DNA from: Candidatus Fervidifonticultor quintus
GTDB taxonomy: Bacteria; Sysuimicrobiota; Sysuimicrobiia; Sysuimicrobiales; Humicultoraceae
Direction: 5' to 3'
DNA: 40,000 bases
Assembly (NCBI GenBank): GCA_031459535.1
Contig: JAVKIJ010000001.1
Coordinates: 52,510 to 92,509, forward strand
This document shows positions 13,354 through 31,984 of this stretch, piece by piece. How positions within the stretch are numbered: position 1 is the stretch's first letter; every line of letters starts with the position of its first letter. The notes beneath the pieces are model-generated. The model was not told the DNA's origin. It saw only the letters and a list, made by a program, of their open reading frames with translations, and did no database searches. The translations under genes and the position numbers were made by a program.

Positions 13354-14367
13354 ATGGCAGTCCGTGTGGGCATCAACGGCTTCGGGCGGATCGGCCGGCT
13401 GGTGCTGCGCGCCATGCGCCAGTACTATCCCCAGGAGATCGAGGTGGCTGCCGTCAACGACATCGCCGATCTGGCCACCAACGCCCATCTGTTCAAGTAC
13501 GACTCCAACTACGGCACCTACGGCGGGTCGGTGGAGACCCGGGAAGGCAAGTTGGTCATCGATGGCCAGGAGATCATGGTATTCGGCGAGCGGGATCCGT
13601 CCACCATCGCATGGTCCAAAGCTGGCGTCGAGGTCGTGGTGGAGTCCACCGGCCGGTTCACCCAGGCCGAGAAGGCCAAGGGGCACCTGCAGGGCGGGGC
13701 CAAGAAGGTCGTGATTAGCGCGCCGGGCAAGGGTGAAGACATCACCATCAATATGGGCGTCAACCATGAGCTCTACGATCCGGCCAGACACACCATCATC
13801 AGCAACGGTTCCTGCACCACCAATGGGCTGTCGGTGACGGCCAAGGTCCTCAGTCGCCAGTTCGGCATCAGGCGCGGCTTCATGACCACCGTGCACTCCT
13901 ACACCAACACCCAACGCATCCTGGACGTGGTCGGGGAAGATCTGCGGGAGGCCCGGGCAGCGGCGCTCAACATCATCCCGGCCAGCACCGGCGCCGCGAA
14001 GGCCATCTTCCTGGTGCTCCCGGAGCTGAAGGGCAAGATGACCGGCATCGCGCTGCGCGTGCCCACGCCCACGGTGTCCATCGTGGATCTGACCGTGGAG
14101 CTGGAGAGGCCCACGACCGCCGAGGCCATCAACGCGGCGTTTGCAGCTGCGGCCGCGGGTGAGATGAAGGGCTACCTAGGGTACAGCGAGATCCCGCTGG
14201 TGTCCATGGACTTCAAGGGCGACCCGCACTCCGGCGTGGTGGACGGGCCACTGACCGCAGTCATGCACGAGACCATGGCCAAGGTCATGACCTGGTACGA
14301 TAACGAGTGGGGCTACGCGTGCCGGGTGGCCGATCTGGTGCACTACATGGCACAACGAGGGCTCTAG
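13354..14367 (+). CDS. gap: Glyceraldehyde-3-phosphate dehydrogenase
   Basis: [12 protein letters not shown]-binding motif, catalytic SCTTN, and WYDNEWGY at the C-terminus. Confidence 0.97.
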
Positions 14368-18147: not shown

Positions 18148-19536
18148 TCACTCGACCGGGAAGCCGCTCCGCACCCAGGCGGCAGTGCCTCCGCTGACGT
18201 TGTAGACCGCGGCGAACCCTCTGTGGACCAGCAGCGCCGCCGCCGACTGGCTGCGGTTGCCGGTTTCGCAGATGACCGCCGTGGGCCGGGCCGGATCCAG
18301 CTCGCGCACCCGCTCGAGCAACTGGCCCAGCGGGAACAGCCGCGCCCCTGGCACGTGACCCTGCTCGAATTCCCAGGGCTCGCGCACGTCCAGCACGACC
18401 GGCGCGCTGCCGCCGCCCGCCCCGAGCATGGCGCGCAACGCTTCGGCGGAGAGGTCGTGCACGCCTCCGCTGGCAAGCGGAAGACCCATCGCCTGCCAGG
18501 CGTTCAACCCCCCGTTGAGACAACCGAGTACTTGCTCGAATCCCACACGGGCCAGCGCCAGGACCACCCGGCTATACGCGGCGTGATCGTCGAGCAACAG
18601 GATCACCGGTGCATCCGCCGGGAGGACGAAGCCGCTGCGGTTGCTCAGTTGAGGATCGGCCTGCAGGTGCACCGACCCGAGGATGTGGGCCCGGACGTAC
18701 TCCACCCGCGGCCGCACATCGAGCAGCACCGCGCCCTGGTCGAGGCGCGCGAGGGCTTCACCGATCGGAATGGCTCGCGGGGTGACCTCACCGAGCGGGG
18801 TCGGACCTCGTCGGTTGGCCTGTTTGATCCACGCGTGGTTGGCCGGCTGTTCCGGTAGCCGGTCAGTGGCGAACTGGACGAAGCCGGGCTTCGGGCGCGG
18901 GCGCAGCGCCGGGTTGAACCGCCGCTCGAATCCCAGGGTCGTGGTCGGCATGGCGCCGATAGACCTGCCGCACAACGATCCCTTGCCGTGCCCCGGGTAG
19001 ACCAGCACGCTGTCGGGCAGCGCCAGGAGCCTGCCGAACAGGCTGTCGTACAGGTGGCCCGCAAGCTCGCGCGCCGCGTCCAGGCCGACCAGGTCCGGCC
19101 GGCCCACGTCGCCTACGAAGAGCGTGTCGCCGGTAAACGCCAGCCACGGTTCGCCCGAGCGCCGCAGGTCGGCCGCCAGCACTGTGACGCTGTCAGGCGT
19201 GTGCCCCGGCGTATGACGCACCTGCAGCCGCGCCGTGCCGAGCTCGAGGATGTCGCCGTCTCGCATCGGAGCGTGCGGAAACTCGGCGCGGCCAGCCTCG
19301 TGGACGCAGATGGTCGCCCCGGTCCGCGCGGCCAGATCGGTATTGCCGGAGATGTGATCGGCGTGGAGGTGCGTTTCGATGATGTGGCTAATGCGCGCGC
19401 CGCGGGCCGCGACGGCGTCCAGGTACCGTCTGGTGTCGCGGTCGGGATCAATGACCGCCGCGACGCCGTGCACCTCGCAGCCGATCAGGTACGACGCGCA
19501 CCCGAGCCCATCCACGGTGAACTGCTGGACGTACAT
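18148..19536 (-). CDS. Persulfide dioxygenase-rhodanese fusion (MBL fold plus two rhodanese domains, CstB-like)
   Basis: HLHADH metallo-beta-lactamase motif. The middle rhodanese-like domain lacks the Cys (LLLDDHAAYS). The C-terminal rhodanese has the active loop CETGNRS. Confidence 0.88.
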   Translation of the reverse strand: MYVQQFTVDGLGCASYLIGCEVHGVAAVIDPDRDTRRYLDAVAARGARISHIIETHLHADHISGNTDLAARTGATICVHEAGRAEFPHAPMRDGDILELGTARLQVRHTPGHTPDSVTVLAADLRRSGEPWLAFTGDTLFVGDVGRPDLVGLDAARELAGHLYDSLFGRLLALPDSVLVYPGHGKGSLCGRSIGAMPTTTLGFERRFNPALRPRPKPGFVQFATDRLPEQPANHAWIKQANRRGPTPLGEVTPRAIPIGEALARLDQGAVLLDVRPRVEYVRAHILGSVHLQADPQLSNRSGFVLPADAPVILLLDDHAAYSRVVLALARVGFEQVLGCLNGGLNAWQAMGLPLASGGVHDLSAEALRAMLGAGGGSAPVVLDVREPWEFEQGHVPGARLFPLGQLLERVRELDPARPTAVICETGNRSQSAAALLVHRGFAAVYNVSGGTAAWVRSGFPVE

Positions 19537-19571
19537 GACCGCCCCCTCCGCGCCTCGGGCGTGTCAGGGCC

Positions 19572-19856
19572 CTACCGCAGCATCAGAAACACCTTCCGCA
19601 GGCGCGCCATGTTTGCCCGAGCCTGCGGAGTGCCCCCGGCGTCTGTGCGCAGACACTTCTCCATGCCGGCGGCGATCAGGTCGATCGCCACCCGATCCAG
19701 CGCGGCCCGCGCCGCCGCCACCTGCTGGGCCACATCGGCACAGTCGCGACCCTCAGCCAGCATCCGCTGGAGGCCCTGGACCTGCCCTTCAACCCGGCGC
19801 AGCCTGCGGATGATCTCGTCGACCTCGGGCTCCCCCAGCTGCAGCACCGGCGTCAT
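19572..19856 (-). CDS. CsoR/RcnR-family (DUF156) repressor with a CstR-like two-Cys signature
   Basis: 94 aa with RRLRRVEGQVQGLQRML and Cys in RDCADV and MEKCL. The residue four before the second Cys is Gly, not the His of copper-sensing CsoR. Confidence 0.86.
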   Translation of the reverse strand: MTPVLQLGEPEVDEIIRRLRRVEGQVQGLQRMLAEGRDCADVAQQVAAARAALDRVAIDLIAAGMEKCLRTDAGGTPQARANMARLRKVFLMLR

Positions 19857-19868
19857 CGTCTTCTCCTG

Positions 19869-20534
19869 CTACGCAGCGTTCAGGATCTCAGCCAGGAACG
19901 CGGCCTCCGGCTGGGCACCTTCGAAGCCGCCGGTCTCGTTGATAACGACCTTCGGCACCCCGTAGACATGGTAACGGGCTGCCAACTCGGGGAACTCCAT
20001 GGCCTCGTACACATCGGCCCGAATCCGGGCTGACTCCTGCGCAAACGCGTGCGCCAGGCGCGCGGCCTTGGGGCAGTAGGGACAGGTCGGCGTCACGAAG
20101 ACTTTGAGGTGCACATCCCTCTGGAGGCTGGCCAGCGCTGCCCGGGTCTGCGCCGACAGCCCGCTGTCGCCGCGGGAGACCGCCACTAAGTCGTCGAGGA
20201 AAGCCGCGAACTCGAACCCCGACGGGATCCCGTAGTACCGTAGGTTGTTCTGGCCGTTGCGGCCGATCAGCACCGCCGGCAGGTGCTCGATGGCCAGGGC
20301 GCGGGCGGTGACCGGGTCGCCGGCCGTGCTGTGGACCTGCAGGCGAATGCGGGGGTCGAGGGCCGCGACCTCCTCGAGGAGCTGCCTGGTGGTTTCGCAA
20401 GTCTCGCAGTCGCGGCCGGGAACCGCCAGGCCCCCGATAGTGTTGACGAAGAGCCTCACCGTGACGTCGCCGGCTAGCTCAGCCTGGAGCCGCTGCCGGA
20501 CCTGCTCGGCCTGCTTGGCGCTCATGAGAGCCAT
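19869..20534 (-). CDS. Protein disulfide oxidoreductase (PfPDO/glutaredoxin-like, two thioredoxin folds)
   Basis: Two CxxC sites (CETC and CPYC) in a tandem thioredoxin-like architecture. The ATG at 20534 lies 9 nt after GAAGGAG. Confidence 0.8.
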   Translation of the reverse strand: MALMSAKQAEQVRQRLQAELAGDVTVRLFVNTIGGLAVPGRDCETCETTRQLLEEVAALDPRIRLQVHSTAGDPVTARALAIEHLPAVLIGRNGQNNLRYYGIPSGFEFAAFLDDLVAVSRGDSGLSAQTRAALASLQRDVHLKVFVTPTCPYCPKAARLAHAFAQESARIRADVYEAMEFPELAARYHVYGVPKVVINETGGFEGAQPEAAFLAEILNAA

Positions 20535-20581
20535 TGCGCATCGCTCCTTCCCAGGAATGTTCCCAGACGCGGGCATAACCG

Positions 20582-20595
20582 TACCCTGTAGGGTA
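20582..20595. promoter_or_regulatory. CsoR/CstR-type operator palindrome
   Basis: TACCC-TGTA-GGGTA is a perfect inverted repeat of the GC-tract type bound by CsoR-family repressors. It directly abuts the minus-strand -10 box. Confidence 0.55.
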
Positions 20596-20624
20596 TAATA
20601 GCAAACGTCTTGCGGATCTGTCAA
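20595..20624 (-). promoter_or_regulatory. Promoter of the sulfur-cluster operon
   Basis: On the minus strand: TTGACA (20619-20624), an 18-nt spacer, then TATTAT (20595-20600). Confidence 0.5.
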
Positions 20625-21506: not shown

Positions 21507-21592
21507 GCCGGGATGGCGGAACTTGGCAGACGCGCACGCTTGAGGGGCGTGTGGGGTTTCCCGTGGGGGTTCAAATCCCCCTCCCGGCACCA
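21507..21592 (+). tRNA. tRNA-Leu (anticodon GAG), type II with long variable arm and encoded CCA
   Basis: Acceptor stem GCCGGGA/TCCCGGC. Anticodon stem CACGC/GCGTG with loop TTGAGGG. Variable arm TGGGGTTTCCCGTG. T-arm GGGGG-TTCAAAT-CCCCC. The 3' end is ACCA. Confidence 0.93.
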
Positions 21593-21641
21593 AGTGTTGT
21601 CAAGGCGATGGAGTCCGCCTGAACCGCCCTGACGGGCTGAT

Positions 21642-21671
21642 GGCTCCTACCCAACTCAGCGGGTAGGAGCC
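21642..21671 (+). terminator. Terminator-like hairpin after tRNA-Leu
   Basis: GGCTCCTACCC-aactcagc-GGGTAGGAGCC forms an 11-bp perfect stem. It is followed by the pyrimidine-rich CTCTCTGTT. Confidence 0.45.
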
Positions 21672-21704: not shown

Positions 21705-22901
21705 GTGGAGCAGGTCTGGTTCACCGCAGCCATCTGGCTTGGACTCGCCCTCATCGCCACCCTCCTGTCGATCTGGCTGCGGGTGTCCGTCGCCCTAACC
21801 GAGATCACCGTGGGCATGGTGGCCCAACTGGTCGTCGCGGGAATCGCCGGGCCGGGGGCGCTGGGTGCCCGGGAAGGATGGATCGCCTTCCTGGCCGGCC
21901 TTGGGGCGATGGTGCTCACGTTTCTGGCCGGCGCAGAACTCGACCCGGACTCCTTCCGAAGGAACTGGAAAGAGGCAACCGTCATCGGGCTCGTGGGATT
22001 CTTCGCGCCGTTTCTGGGAGCCACGTGGGCGGCGCGGGCCTTGCTGGGGTGGGGTGTCCAGGCCAGCCTGCTTGCCGGCGTCGCCCTCTCCACCACATCG
22101 GTCGCCGTCGTCTACGCCGTACTCCTGGAGCTCGGCCTCAACCGGACTGCCTACGGCAAGATCATTCTCGCTGCCTGCTTCATCAACGATCTGGGCACGG
22201 TGGTCGCTCTGGGCCTGATCTTCGCACCGTTCACGCTGCGCAGCCTGGCGTTTGTCGTGGGCCTGGGGGCGGGCCTTGCGGTATTGGTCCGGGCCACCGG
22301 CGCGCTTTTTGGGCGGTACGGGGGGCGGACTTCAGAGCTCGAGGCCAAGCACCTGCTGTTCGGCCTCTTTGTGCTGGGCGGGCTCGCGGTATGGTCGGGC
22401 TCCGAGGCGGTGCTCCCTGCCTACCTCATCGGCATGGTCCTGGCGGGCACCGTGGGCCGTGATCAGGCCCTGGTCAGGCGGCTCCGGACGCTGACCTTCG
22501 GGTTATTGACCCCCTTCTACTTCATCCGGGCCGGATCGTTCGTCGATGTGCCTGCGGTGGTGGCGGGTCTCGGCGTGTTCACCGTGCTCTTCCTGGCGAA
22601 AGCGGTCAGCAAGTTCGTCGGCATCTTTCCGCTGACGCGCCGGTACGGCTATCCCCACAATGAGGGCATGTACACCACGCTGTTGATGTCCACCGGCCTG
22701 ACGTTCGGCACCATCGCCGCGCTCTACGGCCTCTCTCACGACATCATCACCCAGAAGCAGTACTCGTTCCTCGTAGCCACGGTGATCGCGAGCGCTGTGG
22801 TACCCACCTGGGTGGCCAACAAGTTTTTCCTGCCGGTGCGCCATCTCCCGTCCGAGGAGGCACGCGACCCCCAAGATGCGCTGACGGCTGAGCCCGAGTA
22901 G
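21705..22901 (+). CDS. Cation:proton antiporter (Na+/H+ exchanger family, CPA-type)
   Basis: 398-aa polytopic membrane protein whose N-terminus AAIWLGLALIATLLSIWLRVSVALTEITVGMV is typical of the Na_H_exchanger family. GTG start. Confidence 0.86.
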   Translation: MEQVWFTAAIWLGLALIATLLSIWLRVSVALTEITVGMVAQLVVAGIAGPGALGAREGWIAFLAGLGAMVLTFLAGAELDPDSFRRNWKEATVIGLVGFFAPFLGATWAARALLGWGVQASLLAGVALSTTSVAVVYAVLLELGLNRTAYGKIILAACFINDLGTVVALGLIFAPFTLRSLAFVVGLGAGLAVLVRATGALFGRYGGRTSELEAKHLLFGLFVLGGLAVWSGSEAVLPAYLIGMVLAGTVGRDQALVRRLRTLTFGLLTPFYFIRAGSFVDVPAVVAGLGVFTVLFLAKAVSKFVGIFPLTRRYGYPHNEGMYTTLLMSTGLTFGTIAALYGLSHDIITQKQYSFLVATVIASAVVPTWVANKFFLPVRHLPSEEARDPQDALTAEPE

Positions 22902-22929
22902 AGATGCAGGAATGCGGAGGGAGCGGACA

Positions 22930-23349
22930 ATGATCACGCACATCCTCATTGCTCACGACGGTTCCGATGTGGGGCGGCGGGCGGTTGAAGTCGGCACCGA
23001 CCTGGCCCTGCGCTATGGGGCGAAAGCGACTCTGCTGACGGCGATTCAATATCCCGCCTATGCGGCCACGGTGGACGAGGTCCAGGGCGCCGACGAGGAG
23101 CAGCGGGCCTTCGCCGAACGGGTCCAGCGTCAGGCGATCGAGTACGCTCGGATGCGCGGCCTCGACATGTCGGTCGCGATTGTGGCGGGCCATCCGGCCG
23201 AGGTGATCGTGGACTATGCAGGGCAGCACGGGATTGACCTGATCGTGATGGGACATCGGGGGCTGTCCGGGTTGAGGCGGTTTCTGGTGGGCAGTGTTGC
23301 GGACCGAGTGGTGGATCACGCACCATGCATGGTGTTGGTGGTGAGGTAG
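22930..23349 (+). CDS. Universal stress protein (UspA family)
   Basis: ILIAHDGS and the C-terminal GHRGLSGLRRFLVGSVADRVVDHAPCMVLVV. The ATG at 22930 lies 6 nt after GGAGGGAG (track start 22912). Confidence 0.9.
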   Translation: MITHILIAHDGSDVGRRAVEVGTDLALRYGAKATLLTAIQYPAYAATVDEVQGADEEQRAFAERVQRQAIEYARMRGLDMSVAIVAGHPAEVIVDYAGQHGIDLIVMGHRGLSGLRRFLVGSVADRVVDHAPCMVLVVR

Positions 23350-23461: not shown

Positions 23462-25078
23462 CTACGGGCTCGCCGCAGACACGGGGCTTGGGGGCATGCC
23501 GAAGACGCGCCGATACACGTCCTCTCCATGGCTGGTGGCGAGCGGCTCGCCTTCCAGGATTCGGTAGGTCCGACGCCCGTCGGGGAGTCGTTCGGCGCGA
23601 AGGAAGAGAGCCTCATCCAGTTGCTGCCGGTGCAGTGAGCGTGCGAGATCGAACAGGTGGGTGACGAAGACGATTCGCACACCGAGGTCCGCGAGCGCTC
23701 GGAGCACCTGGCGCGCGATCTCTGATCCTTCGCGCTCGTTGGTGGCAGCAAAGGACTCGTTGAGAAGAATGACAGAGTCCGGGCGGACGTGATCGATGAT
23801 CTCACTCATACGCCGCAGTTCTTCGTCGAACTTGCCGCTTCTCATCTCGACGTCCTCTTCCCTCTTGAAGTGGGTGAAGAGACCGCGGCAGAGGCTGGCG
23901 TGGAACGAGCGGACCGGAACGATCATACCCGCCTGCATCATCAGTAGCGCCGTGCCGATCGTGCGCAGGAAGGTGGACTTGCCGCCGGAGTTGGGACCGG
24001 TGATGATCAGGAGATTCTTCCGGTTCGCGTAGAGGTCGTTGGGGACCACGGGGCTATCGAGAGTCAGGGCGAGAGTGACGTCGTGCAGGCCCTGAAACGA
24101 CAGCCGCCGCTCGCTCGCGGGAGAGGGCAGGGGCAGGGACGTGGGGTACCCCTTGCGGGTCAAGGATTCGTGGAGATTCAGACAGCCGATGTAGAAGGCG
24201 AGTTCCGCTCGCAGCATGGTGAAGAAGTCGCGCACGTGGTTGGCGGCTTGGCCCAGGGCGTCGGCGGCCGAGGCAGTGGCCCGATTGCGGAGCTCGGCCA
24301 GGGCCTGGACGCCGGCTTCGTCGCGGGGGGAGAGCTCGAAGCGATAGGTGGCTGGGTGCTCTTCGAAGAGGTTCTTCCACCAGTCGATCCAGGCTCGCCT
24401 GCGGGCCGAGGTCCGGTGCAAGCGGTAGTGGGTGCCCTTGTTGGCGGGGCCGAGCTCGGCACTGAACAGCAGGCCGTGTGGGAATGTGAGGTCGTGCAGG
24501 TGGCGTTCGACCGCTGTGAGGTAGTCGCCGCCGAGGTTCTGTTGGACCATGGCGAAGAACGTGGTCCAGGCCTGGGCGCCGAAGTGCCGTGCGTGGAACT
24601 CGGCGAGGTCGCGGAGCTTCCGGAGCGGTCCGAGGAGCTTCGTCATCGTCTCGCGGGAGTCGCGGAGCACCCAATCCGGGTAGCGAGAGAGCACGCCGAG
24701 ATAGTGCCCCCTCAACGGTTCTGTGGCTTCCACCGCGAGGGCGTAGAGATGGCGGACCACAGCCGGTTGGCGGAGGCAATCGGCCAGAACACACTGACGA
24801 TACAGAATCGTGTCGAGATCACCTTGCACGGCCTCCAGGAGGACTCTGCGGCTGACCTCAAAGACCCAGTCGTCGCCCCGTGCCATGGCGTCCAGGAGGG
24901 GAATCAGGGCCAGGTCCCGCTCGAGGTCCTCGGCGTTCCAGGGAAAGCCGGCATGGGGATTGAAGCCAGCGGGACGGGAGCGTCGTTGTCCAGTACGCGC
25001 GGCGGTGCGCTCCACTGCCGCCTGCTGTACGTGCTCCCAGTCCAGATCCAGCGTGGGATGCAGAAGGTGGGCCTTCAT
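23462..25078 (-). CDS. MutS-family ATPase B (domain V plus helical core; no mismatch-binding or Smr domain)
   Basis: Walker A GPNSGGKST, Walker B region VILLNESFAATNEREG and H-loop FVTHLFDL. The ATG at 25078 overlaps the upstream stop (ATGA). The track ORF extends to 25243 inside the upstream gene. Confidence 0.85.
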   Translation of the reverse strand: MKAHLLHPTLDLDWEHVQQAAVERTAARTGQRRSRPAGFNPHAGFPWNAEDLERDLALIPLLDAMARGDDWVFEVSRRVLLEAVQGDLDTILYRQCVLADCLRQPAVVRHLYALAVEATEPLRGHYLGVLSRYPDWVLRDSRETMTKLLGPLRKLRDLAEFHARHFGAQAWTTFFAMVQQNLGGDYLTAVERHLHDLTFPHGLLFSAELGPANKGTHYRLHRTSARRRAWIDWWKNLFEEHPATYRFELSPRDEAGVQALAELRNRATASAADALGQAANHVRDFFTMLRAELAFYIGCLNLHESLTRKGYPTSLPLPSPASERRLSFQGLHDVTLALTLDSPVVPNDLYANRKNLLIITGPNSGGKSTFLRTIGTALLMMQAGMIVPVRSFHASLCRGLFTHFKREEDVEMRSGKFDEELRRMSEIIDHVRPDSVILLNESFAATNEREGSEIARQVLRALADLGVRIVFVTHLFDLARSLHRQQLDEALFLRAERLPDGRRTYRILEGEPLATSHGEDVYRRVFGMPPSPVSAASP

Positions 25079-26607
25079 GGACGAACGCGTTCTCGGATCG
25101 CGTCGTACGTCAGGCCGTGCTTCCGCGCCAGTGTCAGGGCGTAGGCAAGGCCGTCGGCGGGCCGCCGGACGATCTTGAAGGTGCGCACCTCGGGATTGTC
25201 GGGGGTGACCGTGGCGACCATGCTGACGGTCTTGGCGCTCCACGAGGCCAGCTCATCGAGGAATGTCACCCACACGCAGAAGGCGTCGAGCTCCGAGATG
25301 GCAGAAATGACTTGTCTGGCCAGAGAAAGAGCATCGCGCAAGGTGGTGGAGGAAAAAACCTCGTTGATGACGAGGACACTGCTGGCTGTGGCAGCTTGGA
25401 GGATCTGGTGGATCCTGAGCACGTCGTGCTCCAACTGGCCCTGGGGGCTCGCGACGGGCTCCCCTCGTTCGAAGTGGCTGAAGATCCGATCCGGCAGAGA
25501 TAGCCGCGCTGAGGCGGCTGGGACGGGGCATCCCAGTGACGCTAGGTAGTGAAGCTGACCGAAGGTGCGGGCAAAGGTGGTCTTTCCACCCTGGTTTGGA
25601 CCGGTGACGATGATGATGCGCTCCGGATCATTCAGGCAGAAGTCGTTGCACACCGGCAGGGAGCCCTCTCGGACGAGTCTGGCCGCCAGCGCCAGATCGA
25701 AGCACTGATGAGCGTACACCCGCTGGGACGAATCGCCGATCCGAGGATAGCAGAAGTTCAGACCCGCACGCTTCATTGGTGCGATGTACTCGAGATAAGC
25801 CATGTAGAATTGCACTTCTCGGTCAAAGGCCTCGATAGCGGGTTCGAGGAACGATCCATGGGCGCCGCGAAATGCGGCGAGGTCGGCGAAGAGTTCGGGG
25901 TACAGGGCTGCGACGCCGTCGAGGACTTGGGCCTCGACGTGGTTCATGTTGGAGGAATTTGGGAAGGTGAACTGGTAGCCAGAAGAGTGGGTCTGGCGGA
26001 AGCGTTGGAACGTGTGGGTGATTTCTGCGCTGTAGTCGGTCTCACCCTGGTGGTGGCGCACCTCGACGAGCAATCCGCGGATGAGGGTAGCGTAGCGGAG
26101 CGAGGAAAGCGCAGCCCGAAGACGGTCGGCTTCGTCTCTGAGTTGCCTGAAGGCCGGCCCAGATGCGTAGGCGAGGAGGAAGCGGCGAAACTCCAGGAGC
26201 CCGGCGGACTGAAGTCGCGCGGCGGAGAGGTGCTCGGCTAGGCGGGAAACGGCGTGGCAGTAAAGCCCGACGGCATCCAGGAACCAGCGCTCCTGCTGCC
26301 GCTGCCAGTACGCTTCTCTGGAGAGAGCGAGATGCGATCGAACGGTGCGCATGGCCGATGCAAAGTCAGCCACCTGGGCGAACAGCATGGAATCTTCCAG
26401 ATCCTTCATGACCGCCTGGCGGAAGAGGACCCCGCGGACCGAGGGGAGAGGGGTGTAGAAGAACGGGTTGAGATGATACTCCTCGCGGCCGGCGGCGACG
26501 CCGTTGACGACTTGGTCGAGAAGCAAGTCGGTAAAGAACGGCGGAGGCTCTGGCTGGAGGACCAGGCGCGCCTGATCGGGCGGAAAGAGCAGGCTCAGCC
26601 TCGTCAT
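25075..26607 (-). CDS. MutS-family ATPase A (domain V plus helical core; degenerate H-loop)
   Basis: Walker A GPNQGGKTT and Walker B region VLVINEVFSSTTLRDA. WVTFLDEL occupies the place of the MutS TH motif. The ATG at 26607 overlaps the TPR gene stop (ATGA). Confidence 0.85.
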   Translation of the reverse strand: MTRLSLLFPPDQARLVLQPEPPPFFTDLLLDQVVNGVAAGREEYHLNPFFYTPLPSVRGVLFRQAVMKDLEDSMLFAQVADFASAMRTVRSHLALSREAYWQRQQERWFLDAVGLYCHAVSRLAEHLSAARLQSAGLLEFRRFLLAYASGPAFRQLRDEADRLRAALSSLRYATLIRGLLVEVRHHQGETDYSAEITHTFQRFRQTHSSGYQFTFPNSSNMNHVEAQVLDGVAALYPELFADLAAFRGAHGSFLEPAIEAFDREVQFYMAYLEYIAPMKRAGLNFCYPRIGDSSQRVYAHQCFDLALAARLVREGSLPVCNDFCLNDPERIIIVTGPNQGGKTTFARTFGQLHYLASLGCPVPAASARLSLPDRIFSHFERGEPVASPQGQLEHDVLRIHQILQAATASSVLVINEVFSSTTLRDALSLARQVISAISELDAFCVWVTFLDELASWSAKTVSMVATVTPDNPEVRTFKIVRRPADGLAYALTLARKHGLTYDAIRERVRP

Positions 26608-26945
26608 GGCTTCGGCATCTGACGCTCGCATCGTAAGAGCAGCCCGCGCGCGGGCTCGAATCCTGGTTGGTCGTCGAGGATCTCGCGCAGGATCTTCGCC
26701 GCGTCGGCGAACTGGCGTTGCTCGACGAGACTGTGGGCGAGGTGTAAGCGAAAGTGTGGTTCATACGGGTTGAGCCAAACAGCCAGCCGGAAGAAGCGCT
26801 CGGCAGGTTGGTACGCTTCGCACTTCATGAGATGTGCGCCGATTCGATCCTCGGCGTATCCCAGATGGGGACTAGGGCGCAGCAGTTCGTTGCGTCGCTC
26901 GTGAGGCGTGCCCCGGGTTCGACGCGCCGCCGCTACCATCGCCAC
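26604..26945 (-). CDS. Small TPR-like repeat protein
   Basis: About two TPR-like helix pairs (AERFFRLAVWLNPYEPHFRLHLAHSLVEQRQFADAAKILREIL). The start is either GTG 26945 or ATG 26939, and both overlap the upstream gene. Confidence 0.6.
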   Translation of the reverse strand: MAMVAAARRTRGTPHERRNELLRPSPHLGYAEDRIGAHLMKCEAYQPAERFFRLAVWLNPYEPHFRLHLAHSLVEQRQFADAAKILREILDDQPGFEPARGLLLRCERQMPKP

Positions 26946-27661
26946 ACCACGCCCGGCGCACCCACGTACTTGTGGAGCACACGCTGCCAGGAGGTGGCCT
27001 CCCCCTGGCTCATGGGCTCGTGCCTAAACCGATAGTCGTGCTTTCGCCAGAATTCCGACAGGTCGTTCAACAGACCCTCCAGGAGCGCTCGCTCCGCATT
27101 CGTTAGCCACTCGAGGTCCGAGGAGGACTCGGTCTGGGTCATCACGGTGGCGAGATGTCGGAGACACAACCCCAGGCTCGACGCGTAGCGGGCGCGGAAG
27201 TCCTCGTCCGGCAGCGCCTGGGCCGTGGCCCACGTGTACCGCTCCTCCGCCTGCCACTGGTCGGCGCAGGCGAGGCAGGGCCGCTGGGGAGTCAGCCATG
27301 CTGACAGGCTGCGGCCGAGCCCTCCGTTCGATCCACCGAACAACGCCAGGCGCAGCCCGACGGGCTGACTCACGCGTCCAGCGGCTTCCGTAATGAAGGT
27401 GTCATAGAACTCCTGCAGCAGATGGCGATAGACAATGGCGATGCCGGTCTGGCTGTCCAGGATGTGTGTCAACCGCCAAGCGTGCGCCGCGCAGAAACCG
27501 CGCGAGGCGAGCAGGTCCTCTCGGGTCCAGGGGTCATTGACCCGCTCGTACAGAAATCCGTCGATCAGCCGCTCGACCCCCTGCACGCTGAGATGACAGA
27601 CCGCGCAGTGCTGCCAGTCGAGGGCATGATAGACCGCGAGGAACAACTGGTCGTGCTGCAT
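26933..27661 (-). CDS. Cys/His-rich protein with duplicated CxxC...CxxH module (DUF6062-like)
   Basis: CAVCH...FCAAHAW and CLACA...LCLRHL sit in equivalent positions in the two halves. The C-terminus has KHDYRF...SW. It resembles my recollection of the uncharacterised DUF6062 family. Confidence 0.7.
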   Translation of the reverse strand: MQHDQLFLAVYHALDWQHCAVCHLSVQGVERLIDGFLYERVNDPWTREDLLASRGFCAAHAWRLTHILDSQTGIAIVYRHLLQEFYDTFITEAAGRVSQPVGLRLALFGGSNGGLGRSLSAWLTPQRPCLACADQWQAEERYTWATAQALPDEDFRARYASSLGLCLRHLATVMTQTESSSDLEWLTNAERALLEGLLNDLSEFWRKHDYRFRHEPMSQGEATSWQRVLHKYVGAPGVVWRW

Positions 27662-27664
27662 GGG

Positions 27665-28132
27665 CTATCGGCGCTCTCCAACGGGGCTGTCGCGCCCGGG
27701 CCGTGGTCCTGCACCATCGCCGGTGCTGATCAGACTGGCCTCGAGCTCGGCCACGGCCCGACGCAGCCGATCGTGCCGTGCCCGCTGGATGGCCAGCGAT
27801 CGCTGATACTGGGCGTTGGACGCTTCCAGCCCCGTGATGTTGAGACGGAGAGTGCGGATGGCCTCATCGGCCAGGTAGGCCCGGTGCCGGAGGATAGCCA
27901 TCTCGGCCCTGGCAGCCGACCACTCATTGTGGAGCTGTTCGGTGGGTCGCTCCGATGCCGTCAATGCGTCAGCGGCATATGCCAGGAGGATCTTGACTCC
28001 CTCCTCAGGCGTCCAGCCCCTCTCGCGGATGAAGGCCTCGAACCGCGTACGGAGCCGGGCCGGGATCGGAACGGCGATCCGCTCCATCCGTGGAAAGACG
28101 AACTCACTCACGCCTGAACCTGCCCACGCCAA
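27665..28132 (-). CDS. RHH-like N-terminal domain plus coiled-coil protein (paralog 2)
   Basis: ERIAVPIPARLRTRFEAFIRERGWTPEEGVKILLAYA fits a strand-helix-GxT-helix (RHH) pattern and is followed by heptad-rich helices. The likely start is ATG 28087. The alternatives GTG 28111 and TTG 28132 overlap the upstream gene. Confidence 0.6.
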   Translation of the reverse strand: MAWAGSGVSEFVFPRMERIAVPIPARLRTRFEAFIRERGWTPEEGVKILLAYAADALTASERPTEQLHNEWSAARAEMAILRHRAYLADEAIRTLRLNITGLEASNAQYQRSLAIQRARHDRLRRAVAELEASLISTGDGAGPRPGRDSPVGERR

Positions 28133-28607
28133 GGAGCCTGGCCAACCGGTTTCCCAGCGCCTGTGGACGCCTAGGCGATGGCGTCGGTGCAGTCAGCGCC
28201 TCTCGAAGTGATCGAAGCTTCGCGTCCAGCGCGTCCGTCTCACGTCGCAGAGGCCACATCTGCCCCCGGTTGGTCCGTAGCTCAGCCCCCAGGGCGTGCA
28301 CCCTCTCCGAGAGCTCATGCATGAGTTTCTCGCTGGCAATGGTGCGGGCACGCAGGGACACCAGGAGGGCCTCGGTCTCCCGTCGCTTGAGTTCCTCACG
28401 CCGCCTCTGGGCGTCGAGGCCCGATTCTCCCTCCAAGGCTCGCCAGGAGGCTTCGTCCTGGGCGAACAGATCGATCCCCTGCTCCAGGAGCCATGGCAGT
28501 CCCGCGTCGACTTCACGGCCGGCCATCTCAAGGGCTCGCCGGATCACAGCCCAGTCGTCGCTCAGCAACTCTACATCGATTGTCATTGCTTCAGCGAACT
28601 CCTGCAT
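28104..28607 (-). CDS. RHH-like N-terminal domain plus coiled-coil protein (paralog 1)
   Basis: MTIDVELLSDDWAVIRRALEMAGREVDAGLPWLLEQGIDLF followed by a long coiled coil. It has the same architecture as the next gene. The opposite-strand ORF 28090..28614 is Ser/Arg-rich and looks like an antisense artefact. Confidence 0.6.
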   Translation of the reverse strand: MQEFAEAMTIDVELLSDDWAVIRRALEMAGREVDAGLPWLLEQGIDLFAQDEASWRALEGESGLDAQRRREELKRRETEALLVSLRARTIASEKLMHELSERVHALGAELRTNRGQMWPLRRETDALDAKLRSLREALTAPTPSPRRPQALGNRLARLLGVGRFRRE

Positions 28608-28711
28608 CCCGTAAACAAGAAGCCCCTACCGATCCACAGATCAGTAGGAGCTATCAGCCTCGCGACATGAGGCGACGGCGAGCTCCATCGCCTATTCGAT
28701 TTGAGCCTGCT

Positions 28712-28750
28712 TTGTAACACAGTCTACCTTACCGGAAGTCACTGTGTCAA
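28712..28750 (-). promoter_or_regulatory. Candidate promoter of the six-gene operon, embedded in an inverted repeat
   Basis: On the minus strand: TTGACA (28745-28750), an 18-nt spacer, then TAGACT (28721-28726). The inverted repeat ACACAGT (28717-28723) / ACTGTGT (28741-28747) has one arm on each box. Confidence 0.4.
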
Positions 28751-28852: not shown

Positions 28853-30105
28853 ATGAGCCCTACGTCGAGACGAGAATACATCCAGGCAATCCGCCAGCGC
28901 TATGTCCGCGCCCCGCGTGCTGTCAAGCAGCACCTGCGCGATGAGGTCTGTGCCGTGACTGGGTACCAACGCAAGTACGCTAGCCAGGTCCTCAACAGCG
29001 CGTCCCCGGCCAAGCACCCGTGTCCCCGGCGGCGCCGGGCTCCCACGTACGGCGCCAGGACCATCGCCCTCCTGGCCGCAATTTGGGAAGCCGCCGGGTA
29101 CCCCTGGTCGGCGCGGCTCAAGGCCCTGCTGCCGCTCTGGTTGCCCTGGGCCACGCCGCGGTTTGCGATCACCCCCGAGCAGGAGCGCAGTTGCTGACGA
29201 TCAGCCCCCGGACCATCGACCGTCGCCTCGAGGCCACGAAAACCCACCTGCGGTGCCGCCTCTATGGTCGCACCAAGCTTGGCACGCTACTCAAGCACCA
29301 CATCCCCCTCAAGACCGATCGGTGGGACGTCACCACCCCCGGCTTCGCCGAGACGGACTTGGTCTCGCACTCCGGCAACGCCGCCGACGGCGAGTTTGTC
29401 CACTCCCTCAATCTGACCGACATCCAGTGCACCTGGGTCGAAACCCGCGCGGTGCTGGGCCGCGGGCAGACCGGCGTCCTCGCAGCCGTGGACGAGATCG
29501 CGGAGGATCTCCCCTTTCTCCTGCGAGGACTAGACGCCGACAACGGCTCCGAGTTCATCAACCACCACCTCTTCCGGTACTGCCAGGACCACGGGATCCA
29601 GCTCACCCGCGGCCGGCCCTACAAGAAAGACGACAACGCCCACGTTGAGCAGAAGAACTGGACGCACGTCCGCAAGCTTCTGGGCTGGGATCGCTACGAC
29701 TCCCACCAAGCCCTGGAGGCGATCAACGACCTCTACCGCCACGAGCTCCGGCTCATGATGAACCTGTTCCAGCCCTCGGTGAAGCTCGTCCGGAAAGTCC
29801 GCGTCGGCTCCCGGCTCAAGCGGGTCTATGACCGGCCCCAGACGCCCTTGGATCGTCTCCTGGCCACCGGCGCTGGCGACCCGGCGAAGGTCGCCGCCTT
29901 CCAGCAGCTGCGCACGCGCCTGGATCCCTTCGCGCTCACCCAGCCGATCGATCGGAAACTCGCCCGAATCTACCGCCTCGCGAACCACCGCCCCAGCCTC
30001 CCGTGCGTCGCCCCGCCACAAGGTCCGCCAGTGAAGTGCAAGGGGTGGGGTCCCGGCAGTGCCGCCGCGGAGGACTGGTTCGTCATCCGCGCGAAAGCAG
30101 ACTGA
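28853..30105 (+). mobile_element. DDE (rve/integrase-core) transposase gene, disrupted by a frameshift (ISNCY/ISDol1-like by recollection; family unverified)
   Basis: The N-terminal HTH part is in ORF 28853..29197 (CAVTGYQRKYASQVLN). The catalytic part is in ORF 29020..30105 (DADNGSEF...YKKDDNAHVEQKNW). The frames join near 29180-29197 (ITPEQE | AQLLTISPRTIDRRL). Confidence 0.8.
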
Positions 30106-30142
30106 GAAAGCCCTGGGGCATCCTTCGGTGGAGGATTTTGCC

Positions 30143-31984
30143 ATGTTCGGATGGACCGGAAACATCCTCAGAGTCGATCTGACGCACAAGACATTCCGAA
30201 GAGAGACGTTCGACGAGGCATTCGCCCACAAGTGGATCGGCGGCCGGGGATTCGCCGTGAAGACTCTCTGGGACGAGCTCGAACCGGGCATTGATCCCTT
30301 GGGGCCCAAGAACAAGTTCGTCGTGGCCCTGGGCCCCATCGCCGGCATTGCCGCGCCCAATACGGGCAAGACCGTGGTCGCGGCCAAGTCGCCGCTGACC
30401 GGAGGGTACGGGGACGGCAACCTGGGCACCCGGGTCACGGAGCAACTCCGAAAGGCCGGCTACGACATGCTCATCGTCGAGGGGGCGGCGGAAGCACCCA
30501 CGGTCCTCTTCATCGAGGATGATCGGGTGGAGTTCCACTCTGCCGCCGAGGTCTGGGGCCAGGGGACGTACGCAACTCACCACTGGATCTACGAGCGCTA
30601 CGGCAAGACGGTTGGGGTGCTGGTCATCGGGCCCGGAGGGGAAAACCTCAACCGCTATGCCGTGGTCCGGAGCATGGAGGGACGCTCGGGCGGCCGGCCC
30701 GGGATGGGCGCGGTGATGGGGTCGAAGAAACTGAAGGCCATCGTGGTGAGGGGGCGCGGGTCCGTTCCCCAGGCCGATCCCGCAGCCATGAAGAAGCTGG
30801 GCTCCGCCGACCTGCGCGCGGTGCACCAGATCGACAAGAAGACCGGTTGGTCCCTCCAGGGCACCACCGGCATTCTCGCGTGGTGCAATGAGGTGGCCGC
30901 GCTGCCGGTCCGCAACATGAGGAAGACCCATCACCCTGATGCCAGGTTCATCGACGGGGAGCGGCTGCACGAAGCGCGGGTGGCGACCTACGGCTGTCCG
31001 ATCTGCACCATGCCCTGCGGGATCGCCATCCACGACCGCGAAGGCCGGGAGTCCGAACTCGACTACGAGAACATCGGCATGCTAGGCAGTAACCTGGAAA
31101 TCTTCGAACTCGACCAGGTTGGCTCCCTCAACTTCCTGTGCGACGACTACGGCCTGGATACCATCTCTGCCGGCGGCGTCCTCGCCTTCTACGCCGACGC
31201 CATCGACCGGGGAGCGGTCAGTGGCGATTTCCGGTTCGGCGATGGCGAGCGAGCCAAGGTGCTGCTCCGTCTGGCGGCCCTCAGGGAAGGGGAGGTGGGC
31301 AACCTGCTGGCCGAGGGCACCATGCGCATGGCGCAGAGATTCGGCCGGGGCTCAGACGCCTACGCCATGCACGTCAAGGGGATGGAGATCTCCGCGTACA
31401 ACTGCAAGCTCTCGCCCGCCATGGCCCTGGCGTACGGGACGAGCCCGATCGGTGCGCATCACAAGGACGCCTGGGTGATTACCTTCGAACTCAACCAGAC
31501 GGTTCGGGATTCCTACGGCCGGGAGAAAGCTCAAAAGGTCGTCGAGCTGCAGAGGATTCGGGGAGGCTTGTTTGAGTATCTGATTGCGTGCCGCTTTCCC
31601 TGGATCGAGGTCGGCTGGGAACTCGATCACTATCCGGTGTATTTCAACACCGTCACCGGGCTCCACTGGACGCTGGACGACTTCTGGAAGGTCAGCGACA
31701 GGATCTACGCACTCATGAAGTTCTTCTGGTTGCGGGAGTTTCCGGATTGGAACCGCAAGATGGACTACCCGCCTATGGTCTGGTTCGATCCCGCCAACGC
31801 CGATACCGACGGACCCATCGCGGGCAAGGTCCTCGATCTGGCACAGTACGACCGCCTCCTGAGCCACTACTATGATCTCCGCGGCTGGGACGAGAGAGGC
31901 GTGCCAACCCGGAGGACGGCGGCAGCCCTCGGCCTCGAGGACGAAGCTCGGCGGGCGGAGACGTTCGGAAGGTTGGAAGACTGA
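30143..31984 (+). CDS. aor: Aldehyde:ferredoxin oxidoreductase (tungstopterin AOR family)
   Basis: N-terminus GNILRVDLT, the [4Fe-4S] motif CPICTMPC, and CDDYGLDTIS. The ATG at 30143 lies 8 nt after GGAGG (track start 30059). Confidence 0.93.
   Translation: MFGWTGNILRVDLTHKTFRRETFDEAFAHKWIGGRGFAVKTLWDELEPGIDPLGPKNKFVVALGPIAGIAAPNTGKTVVAAKSPLTGGYGDGNLGTRVTEQLRKAGYDMLIVEGAAEAPTVLFIEDDRVEFHSAAEVWGQGTYATHHWIYERYGKTVGVLVIGPGGENLNRYAVVRSMEGRSGGRPGMGAVMGSKKLKAIVVRGRGSVPQADPAAMKKLGSADLRAVHQIDKKTGWSLQGTTGILAWCNEVAALPVRNMRKTHHPDARFIDGERLHEARVATYGCPICTMPCGIAIHDREGRESELDYENIGMLGSNLEIFELDQVGSLNFLCDDYGLDTISAGGVLAFYADAIDRGAVSGDFRFGDGERAKVLLRLAALREGEVGNLLAEGTMRMAQRFGRGSDAYAMHVKGMEISAYNCKLSPAMALAYGTSPIGAHHKDAWVITFELNQTVRDSYGREKAQKVVELQRIRGGLFEYLIACRFPWIEVGWELDHYPVYFNTVTGLHWTLDDFWKVSDRIYALMKFFWLREFPDWNRKMDYPPMVWFDPANADTDGPIAGKVLDLAQYDRLLSHYYDLRGWDERGVPTRRTAAALGLEDEARRAETFGRLED

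Follow-up and report, generated by a model that had tools for sequence, protein, structure and literature searches.

The locus described here lies within a 40,000-nt window of Candidatus Fervidifonticultor quintus DNA (contig JAVKIJ010000001.1, positions 52,510 to 92,509 of the forward strand), the window being the whole stretch that was analysed. Six genes on its minus strand, encoding two small coiled-coil proteins (CC1 and CC2), a DUF6062 protein, a small TPR protein and two MutS-like ATPases of the MutS4A and MutS4B types, follow one another closely behind a leader in which a fluoride riboswitch is predicted, and a second riboswitch unit faces them from the plus strand (Table 1). Related loci were gathered from genomes (80 loci with DUF6062) and metagenomes (80 loci with MutS4), their open reading frames (ORFs) were clustered, and the representatives were named with Pfam; individual loci are referred to below by L numbers.

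Probable six-gene operon and its leader

All six ORFs are present on the minus strand where an original prediction, made from the sequence alone, had placed them, and their coupled junctions are borne out by direct reading of the sequence. Stop and start codons overlap as ATGA between the TPR and MutS4A genes (26607-26604) and again between the MutS4A and MutS4B genes (25078-25075), whereas the overlap of the DUF6062 and TPR genes is 7 or 13 nt, depending on the TPR start that is chosen (ATG 26939 in public gene calls). A 3-nt gap (27662-27664) separates CC2 from the DUF6062 gene, and the CC1/CC2 junction is a 16-nt gap or an overlap, depending on the start of CC2. These junctions, together with a single promoter-like site, support the earlier proposal of one coupled unit of all six genes.

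The promoter-like site is the only sigma-70-like match between positions 23000 and 29200 and is followed by a match to the crcB RNA motif that scores 40.8 bits in Rfam, where the gathering score is 34 (E 4e-8, model positions 1-64). When the leaders of related loci were compared, a block of about 90 nt located 5' of CC1 was found to be conserved far above the level of spacers, and the aptamer sequence is conserved in the leaders of loci with the CC1-CC2-DUF6062 arrangement. In 74 matches from related loci, 93.7% of the cells in the aptamer helices are paired and six of the eight pairs show compensatory change, in an alignment that was fitted to the model and therefore inflates the pairing somewhat; the observed covariation score was reached by none of 500 shuffles, and slid registers also came nowhere close to it. 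G16, G17 and G19 as well as C52, C53 and T54, the nucleotides of the GGAG...CUCC tertiary contact, are invariant in the aptamer alignment. The 5' arm of a terminator-like hairpin (z = -3.6, minimum-energy fold) overlaps the 3' tail of the aptamer, an arrangement that is often found with crcB motifs (Weinberg 2010), and the ATG at 28607 comes 14 nt after this hairpin, past its U-rich tail. The succession of promoter-like site, aptamer, overlapping hairpin, U-rich tract and ATG corresponds to the canonical layout of an ON-switch expression platform.

In riboswitches of this class, fluoride, in the form of a Mg-F complex, locks the aptamer, so that the terminator fails and RNA polymerase enters the genes. 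Binding of fluoride to the operon leader would block the terminator in this manner, and the six genes would then be transcribed. It is highly probable that the six genes constitute one operon, which carries the MutS4A/MutS4B pair and whose transcription is gated by the predicted fluoride riboswitch. The original prediction had assigned the control of the operon to autoregulation by ribbon-helix-helix (RHH) proteins; this logic gives way to a fluoride riboswitch with an overlapping terminator, and the riboswitch (28701-28638) had lain unnoticed within the very region that the prediction covered.

Convergent with the operon, a second and stronger riboswitch is located directly upstream of the genes for a Na+/H+ exchanger and a universal stress protein (Usp), and a hairpin (GGCTCCTACCC...GGGTAGGAGCC) comes after it, the two riboswitch units thus facing each other. 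Because a second fluoride riboswitch probably drives this convergent pair, the whole region of 21.6-28.75 kb can be regarded as a fluoride-stress locus. The neighbouring stress genes had been taken as a sign of accessory status, a view that does not fit an exchanger and a Usp that have their own fluoride riboswitch and accompany the gene set in many genomes. No match to CrcB was found in the window with an E. coli CrcB sequence as query.

Several further features lie around the fluoride locus (Table 1). A tRNA-Leu(GAG) gene stops 2 nt short of the Na+/H+ exchanger riboswitch and may bear on the assembly of the locus, because tRNA genes are common integration sites. On the other side, about 100 nt past the promoter-like site of the operon, lies an insertion sequence (IS)-like element with ORFs of 114 and 361 aa, the larger of which has a weak match to the integrase core (rve; 23.6 bits, below the cut-off of 32.6); at its end, this element runs into the beginning of a gene for aldehyde:ferredoxin oxidoreductase. 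Genes for a metallo-beta-lactamase-rhodanese fusion and a thioredoxin-like protein are found downstream of the locus.

Table 1. Positions of the genes and predicted elements at the fluoride locus and beside it (window coordinates)
Feature	Position	Strand	Description
Promoter-like site	28721-28750	-	TTGACA, 18-nt spacer, TAGACT; 10/12 positions; aptamer follows after about 20 nt
Predicted fluoride riboswitch aptamer (crcB RNA motif, RF01734)	28638-28701	-	Full-length model match (Rfam)
Terminator-like hairpin and tail	28611-28652	-	14 pairs at 28652-28621, then UCUUGUUU (U-rich); scan and minimum-energy fold
CC1	28104-28607	-	167 aa (160 aa from ATG 28586); small N-terminal domain and coiled coil; no Pfam family
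CC2	27665-28087	-	140 aa from ATG 28087; 155 aa from TTG 28132 (27665-28132); distant CC1 paralogue by profile comparison
DUF6062 protein	26933-27661	-	242 aa; all-alpha; two invariant CxxC...CxxH sites and RKHDYRF motif
Small TPR protein	26604-26945	-	113 aa from GTG, 111 aa from ATG 26939; near-orphan
MutS4A-type ATPase (ORF5)	25075-26607	-	510 aa; Walker A GPNQGGKT; Walker B VINE (Asn for Asp)
MutS4B-type ATPase (ORF6)	23462-25078	-	538 aa; Walker A GPNSGGKS; Walker B LLNE; predicted MutS-like helical, beta-rich and ATPase regions
Walker B codons, ORF5	25340-25362	-	
Walker B codons, ORF6	23740-23765	-	
Terminator-like hairpin within MutS4A gene	25359-25375	-	T6 run
Second predicted fluoride riboswitch	21595-21656	+	59 bits against 34, E 5e-14, model positions 1-64 (Rfam)
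Na+/H+ exchanger family transporter	21705-22901	+	398 aa; PF00999, E 7e-39; co-conserved with DUF6062 and MutS4
Universal stress protein (Usp)	22912-23349	+	145 aa; PF00582, E 3e-35; co-conserved with DUF6062 and MutS4
tRNA-Leu(GAG) gene	21507-21592	+	
IS-like element	28853-30105	+	114-aa ORF and 361-aa ORF
Aldehyde:ferredoxin oxidoreductase gene	30059-31984		
Metallo-beta-lactamase-rhodanese fusion and thioredoxin-like protein	18148-20624	-	

The MutS4A/MutS4B-type pair and its putative partner proteins

The two large ORFs match MutS_V alone in Pfam (74 and 81 bits), with no match to MutS_I-IV or Smr in either of them, which agrees with the earlier claim that both lack a mismatch-binding domain and an Smr domain; they also form a related pair, as had been claimed, being diverged paralogues with 34% identity in the ATPase domain. 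Neither ORF is assigned to MutS1, the models of which give 74-82 bits against cut-offs of 480-642, or to MutS2 (55-89 bits against a cut-off of 400). A KamC-type reactivase (NF052383) was rejected as a family assignment, its scores of 44 and 77 bits, confined to the ATPase core, being far under the cut-off of 300; it is kept only as a precedent. Adjacent MutS genes that encode the ATPase domain only, in which the stop codon of A overlaps the start codon of B, have been described as MutS4A and MutS4B, with unknown function (Lin, Nei & Ma 2007), and the window pair matches exactly this signature (domain V only, adjacent, stop and start overlapping). The MutS pair is not a novelty in itself: it matches a known subfamily.

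Relatives of ORF6 number more than 8,000 proteins in several phyla, many of them 55-68% identical, and genes of the A type and the B type are both present in 76 of the 83 related loci with MutS4, A preceding B in every locus where both were listed. ORF6 shares 47% identity, along 93% of its length, with a protein encoded on a Mycobacterium branderi plasmid, where the surrounding island contains NADH-dehydrogenase/hydrogenase subunits, Usp and NUDIX. This island resembles the MutS4 island of M. yongonense, which contains enolase, the NADH dehydrogenase complex and a hydrogenase subunit (M. yongonense study 2017), a resemblance that lends indirect support to the placement of the window pair in the subfamily. 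Homologous recombination is the role named in the title of the same study, for which recombinant M. smegmatis carrying the operon was tested. Horizontal transfer of MutS4 has been inferred (Lin, Nei & Ma 2007; M. yongonense study 2017), and MutS4 pairs are present on 118 plasmid records.

An AlphaFold model of MutS4B (predicted local distance difference test score, pLDDT, 71.5) can be superposed on MutS/MSH structures over 515-620 alignment columns, that is, over nearly its whole length, and its top-ranked structural matches are without exception members of the MutS family, whose substrate is DNA or, for MutS2, the ribosome. Similarity to PDB structures at the level of sequence is limited to the ATPase domain, residues 343-520. 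Judged from this model, the N-terminal helices may correspond to MutS domain III, the beta-rich insert to domain IV and the ATPase to domain V. MutS2 (that of B. subtilis or T. thermophilus, for example), which is among the best matches in both sequence and fold, resembles MutS4 in having no mismatch-binding or connector domain in Pfam; it forms homodimers, however, and ends in an Smr nuclease (and KOW) domain, whereas MutS4A/B are two paralogues that have no Smr and an Asn in Walker B.

This Asn replaces the Asp of the Walker B motif (hhhhNE) in 66 of 67 A-type and all 84 B-type sequences, those of loci L090-L169 included, and both the Walker A motif and the Glu that follows the Asn, which is aligned with the catalytic Glu, are intact. 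In a profile alignment, the motif corresponds to LLDE of Taq MutS. The Asp at the position of the MutS4 Asn corresponds to D693 of E. coli MutS, which coordinates Mg. The D693N variant of that protein has reportedly been engineered and crystallised (PDB 3k0s), and this structure is among the fold matches of the MutS4B model. In MutS1 the substitution is an engineered defect of the Mg switch, whereas Asn is the natural state of both MutS4 subunits, and its conservation throughout the family, apparently undescribed before, implies that the nucleotide cycle of MutS4 differs from that of MutS1. At the level of DNA, the Walker B codons of MutS4A are covered by a terminator-like hairpin, which is most likely a chance match, since the scan found four sites against 2.6 expected in shuffles.

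The 242-aa protein belongs to DUF6062 (PF19538; 63 bits against a Pfam cut-off of 27). Two CxxC...CxxH modules had been noticed in it, and all eight residues concerned (C19, C22, C57, H60, C129, C132, C166 and H169) prove to be invariant in 25 homologues; these sites could bind Zn or an Fe-S cluster. The AlphaFold 2 model is all-alpha (pLDDT 88.6), and Foldseek found no counterpart of the fold in the PDB (best E 0.9). The protein looks like an internal duplication of one CxxC...CxxH half, and DUF6062 genes are often duplicated in tandem (L021, L023, L025, L027, L046, L059 and L145), with three in a row in L145. The searched literature offered nothing relevant on DUF6062, or on MutS in connection with dynamin, HEAT or enolase. 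In Chloroflexota metagenome-assembled genomes (MAGs), a multihaem cytochrome c gene follows DUF6062, either directly or past an ABC-transporter gene (L036, L044, L050, L054, L061, L066 and L082), and enolase is upstream of DUF6062 in six of these seven loci. DUF6062 may be regulated differently there, because no fluoride riboswitch was detected in the seven loci.

The identification of the 113-aa product as a TPR protein holds by a narrow margin, TPR_19 giving 25.5 bits against a Pfam cut-off of 25. A search among 5.8 billion proteins gave two hits, and in the Sumerlaeota locus L081 the gene for a homologue follows a fluoride riboswitch and immediately precedes DUF6062. For the two small proteins, the claim of paralogy finds support in profile-profile comparison (hhalign 92%, E 5e-7, 117 columns) and none in BLASTP (E 0.66, not significant); a further link by jackhmmer was discounted, as it may run through a mis-called fused ORF in L017. 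The label RHH-like is not established, with RHH_1 reaching E 0.018 in one of eight members of the CC2 family and RelB (E 0.074) and the NikR N-terminus (E 0.12) likewise weak. In 12 distinct related loci, mostly of Armatimonadota, CC2-DUF6062 is immediately preceded by a CC1 homologue, and CC1 and CC2 are lineage-restricted, paralogous partners of DUF6062. In two Armatimonadota MAGs (L003/L004, 8894-11248), a gene for a membrane H+-pyrophosphatase comes directly after CC1-CC2-DUF6062, in keeping with the known inhibition of pyrophosphatase by fluoride.

Related loci and the fluoride regulon

Across the 160 related loci, MutS4 pairs, DUF6062, small HEAT/TPR proteins, dynamin-like GTPases, enolase, Na+/H+ antiporters, Usp, major facilitator superfamily (MFS) transporters and CrcB cluster together. 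Directly downstream of DUF6062 lies either an MFS transporter (about 15 loci) or a HEAT plus zinc-ribbon protein of about 150 aa (about 12 loci); enolase is directly upstream in 11 loci, the Na+/H+ exchanger and Usp occur in nine DUF6062 loci each, and the MutS4 pair was found in six loci of the DUF6062 scan in addition to the window. Viewed from MutS4, a cluster of dynamin-like GTPases and DUF6062, merged by single linkage through fusion proteins, is present in 35 of 83 loci, and the DUF6062 profile by itself matches in 23 of them at E <= 1e-10, many of the loci being contigs that end early. MFS transporters (25/83), Usp and enolase (20/83 each), the HEAT plus zinc-ribbon protein and the Na+/H+ exchanger (17/83 each), NuoH/NuoK-like subunits (9-10 of 83) and a metallophosphoesterase (9/83) are also recurrent, CrcB was found in nine MutS4 loci with the same E. 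coli query, and cyclopropane-fatty-acid synthase and P-type ATPases are likewise seen in these neighbourhoods.

Fluoride riboswitches are frequent in these loci. At the Rfam level there are 13 matches in eight loci, upstream of CC1, Na+/H+ exchanger (NaH), MutSA, Usp/enolase and dynamin genes, and a purpose-built covariance model gave 43 and 113 matches in 88 and 84 sources, respectively. The density in the MutS4 set is about 0.9 per 10 kb; at least one riboswitch is present in 37 of the 53 MutS4 loci with enough upstream sequence, and in 14 it lies at most 600 nt from MutS4A. The riboswitch is found directly before MutS4A in, for example, L120, L149, L113, L171 and L007, and elsewhere before DUF6062 or CC1. 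In an alphaproteobacterial MAG (L008), tandem aptamers (13402-13469 and 13700-13766), which could give a steeper response to fluoride, precede the gene for a dynamin-like GTPase. Dynamin-like GTPases, often two per locus, occur in fluoride-riboswitch operons with MutS4A/B, DUF6062 and HEAT/Zn-ribbon genes (L009, 2679-5195; L149, 3520-12047; L120, 1451-9854), and an 838-aa dynamin-like protein of L009 ends in a DUF6062-like domain.

A complete fluoride island with three Rfam-level riboswitches is carried by a conjugative plasmid of clinical K. pneumoniae (NZ_CP017986, 89420-110982; L203). The first riboswitch precedes antiporter-Usp-MutS-MutS, the last two genes being MutS4A-MutS4B, the second ppaC-usp-eno-gpmA-crcB and a P-type ATPase, and the third CLC-DUF190. 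MutS4 pairs are mobile as components of fluoride-resistance islands. Four hypothetical genes next to the Klebsiella pair were checked as candidates for the CC1-CC2-DUF6062 trio and are not these genes.

This picture agrees with what is known of RF01734 regulons. Genes downstream of the crcB motif include mutS and those for ion transporters and formate hydrogen lyase (Weinberg 2010), the genes that the literature gives as typically associated with the riboswitch encode Na+/H+ antiporters, pyrophosphatase, enolase and formate hydrogen lyase, and the ppaC-uspA-eno-gpmA-crcB operon of E. cloacae has been shown experimentally to confer fluoride resistance. The window shares with such regulons, of which the E. 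cloacae FRM operon is an example, the aptamer class and overlapping terminator as well as a Na+/H+ antiporter and Usp, and its relatives add enolase, CrcB, CLC, pyrophosphatase and formate-hydrogenlyase-like subunits. In contrast to them, the window operon includes neither an exporter nor a known fluoride-inhibited enzyme and encodes only proteins without a known role in fluoride biology (CC1, CC2, DUF6062, TPR and MutS4A/B). The MutS4 genes resemble the published ones (Lin, Nei & Ma 2007; M. yongonense 2017) in their lone detectable ATPase domain, their patchy spread and neighbours like those of the mycobacterial islands, whereas the direct coupling to DUF6062 and TPR genes seen in the window is not described for them. 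Neither of these two papers links MutS4 to fluoride, to DUF6062, HEAT/TPR or dynamin partners, or to the Walker B Asn, and in a 2024 review on resistance to fluoride there is no mention of MutS or dynamin. Already known are the riboswitch class, the loose association of this class with mutS-like genes, and the MutS4A/B subfamily. The explicit membership of MutS4 in the fluoride regulon, with DUF6062, CC1/CC2, HEAT/TPR and dynamin-like partners, is apparently undescribed in the searched literature, and the inclusion in this regulon of DUF6062, the coiled-coil proteins and the solenoid protein looks new.

The composition of the operon is variable, and DUF6062, a small alpha-solenoid protein and MutS4A-MutS4B are nevertheless found side by side in Anaerolineae (L020), Thermoflexales (L051), an alphaproteobacterium (L008) and the window; the occurrence of DUF6062 and a small alpha-solenoid protein beside MutS-like pairs, one part of the original prediction, therefore recurs in other phyla. 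CC1-CC2-DUF6062-MFS-NaH-Usp-MutS4A-MutS4B form one translationally coupled operon in L170, and in L149 a single riboswitch unit with overlapping genes reads MutS4A-MutS4B-dynamin-DUF6062-dynamin-HEAT/Zn-ribbon. From these arrangements we conclude that the genes belong to one regulon and probably to one pathway.

Possible roles of the operon

MutS4A and MutS4B would form a heterodimer, to which DUF6062 and the solenoid protein would be adaptors or regulators. In the reading that we favour, tentatively and at somewhat less than an even chance, this heterodimer would be a nucleotide-switched clamp on DNA or another nucleoprotein that works on while fluoride poisons Mg-dependent phosphoryl-transfer enzymes. 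DNA or nucleoprotein is favoured as the substrate because of the fold of MutS4B and the recombination paper on M. yongonense. The change from Asp to Asn in Walker B would lower both the Mg dependence of the clamp and its sensitivity to metal-fluoride trapping; since the toxicity and the sensing of fluoride both act through Mg-F chemistry, one may speculate that the Asn shields the ATPase from such trapping.

Several observations weigh against this explanation as a whole, the riboswitch included. The operon aptamer lies only 6.8 bits over the cut-off, the presumed clamp region (helical/beta-rich insert, about residues 200-252) has a pLDDT below 50, and the idea of fluoride-proofing by Asn is purely speculative. 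The association with transporters, with dynamin-like GTPases and with cyclopropane-fatty-acid synthase points as much to the membrane as to DNA. The six genes are, moreover, not conserved together as a set, contrary to what had been supposed: the closest relative, whose DUF6062 is 80% identical, has a riboswitch and CC1-CC2-DUF6062, then at once the convergent Usp-NaH, and lacks TPR and MutS4A/B. In a genome scan, five of eight distinct CC1-CC2-DUF6062 loci had no MutS gene within 10 kb, and L007 has a MutS4 pair with a riboswitch of its own and none of the four remaining gene families of the window. Because the six genes are not a fixed unit, their adjacency may reflect shared regulation rather than physical partnership.

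The emphasis on membranes can be taken further. MutS4A/B, DUF6062 and the solenoid protein may act on membranes or proteins as an ATP-driven partner of dynamin-like GTPases and transporters, keeping up membrane integrity or ion/pH balance during influx of hydrogen fluoride, with the regulation of the operon unchanged. Such a partnership is suggested by the unit of L149, in which MutSA-MutSB, dynamins, DUF6062 and HEAT/Zn-ribbon are mixed behind one riboswitch, by the fusion of a DUF6062-like domain to a dynamin-like GTPase in L009, by the translational coupling of DUF6062-MFS-NaH-Usp-MutSA-MutSB in L170, and by the cyclopropane-fatty-acid synthase and P-type ATPases of the neighbourhoods. It also accords with KamC of NCBIfam, since the name enzyme reactivase given to this MutS_V-type ATPase indicates that the domain is not confined to work on DNA. 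However, the KamC match (76.6 against 300 bits) is far below the cut-off, the MutS4B model superposes nearly full length on DNA-bound MutS/MSH, and the top-ranked structural matches are all MutS-family proteins with DNA, or ribosomes for MutS2, as their substrate. Moreover, the only experimental paper on MutS4 concerns recombination, and no dynamin-like gene lies beside the window operon. On balance, we consider a role at the membrane possible and rather unlikely.

It is also conceivable that the operon arose by the chance fusion of two unrelated cassettes of the fluoride regulon, CC1-CC2-DUF6062 and TPR-MutS4A-MutS4B, which came to share a riboswitch through local rearrangement. The closest relative, with nothing between CC1-CC2-DUF6062 and the convergent Usp and NaH, would then show the state without the second cassette, as would the trios without MutS genes in L001, L003 and L005, and the L007 pair, which lacks the four other families, the state without the first; an IS-like integrase ORF that abuts the operon promoter and the wide variation of gene order and orientation among the loci are in keeping with such an origin. 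It is hard to reconcile with chance, however, that DUF6062, the solenoid protein and the MutS pair are directly adjacent in unrelated phyla (L020, L051, L008 and the window) and that the DUF6062 profile reaches E <= 1e-10 in 23/83 MutS4 loci. The overlaps of start and stop codons in the window, in addition, imply selection for co-expression. Chance fusion is therefore an unlikely origin of the operon.

Surveillance of phages or mobile elements by a MutS-like clamp under RHH repressors, as put forward in the original prediction, is highly improbable: it draws on the horizontal mobility of MutS4 pairs (the 118 plasmid records and the inference in the literature), the IS-like ORF nearby, the weakly RHH-like N-terminus of CC2 and weak matches to defence ATPases in the P-loop only, whereas the leader is an ion/metabolite-sensing riboswitch and the neighbours (enolase, antiporters, Usp and CrcB) place the genes in a context of ion homeostasis and glycolysis. 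A PADLOC scan of the six proteins gave no family for four of them and, for the rest, P-loop segments only, of no significance (best mad8, 41 residues, 344-384), and Pfam found no nuclease or other effector domain in the six. On viral contigs, the MutS4B profile found only distant ATPase-domain matches (25-42% identity), many on MAGs labelled as giant viruses, and none that is a true homologue, and the DUF6062 profile had no match at all. A defence system was rejected on these grounds together.

To return to the clamp on DNA or nucleoprotein, the presence of mutS-like genes behind fluoride riboswitches has been known from the start and its reason never explained; the window and its 160 relatives join this thread to that of the MutS4 subfamily. 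One wider proposal, which we hold to be doubtful at present, is that MutS4A/B, DUF6062, a HEAT/TPR adaptor and the often paired dynamin-like GTPases together represent an unrecognised and widespread fluoride-stress machine, with NTPases adapted, by the change of Asp to Asn, to go on cycling while metal fluorides poison ordinary Mg-dependent ATPases. Because the same pair sits behind a fluoride riboswitch on conjugative plasmids of K. pneumoniae, the function of MutS4 is testable in a culturable organism. The locus also places DUF6062 in a biological context for the first time, and it is of relevance for the engineering of fluoride tolerance in the degradation of organofluorine compounds. If the proposal is true, there would be a second layer of fluoride defence, beyond export and enzyme replacement, that guards transactions of DNA/nucleoprotein or of the membrane.

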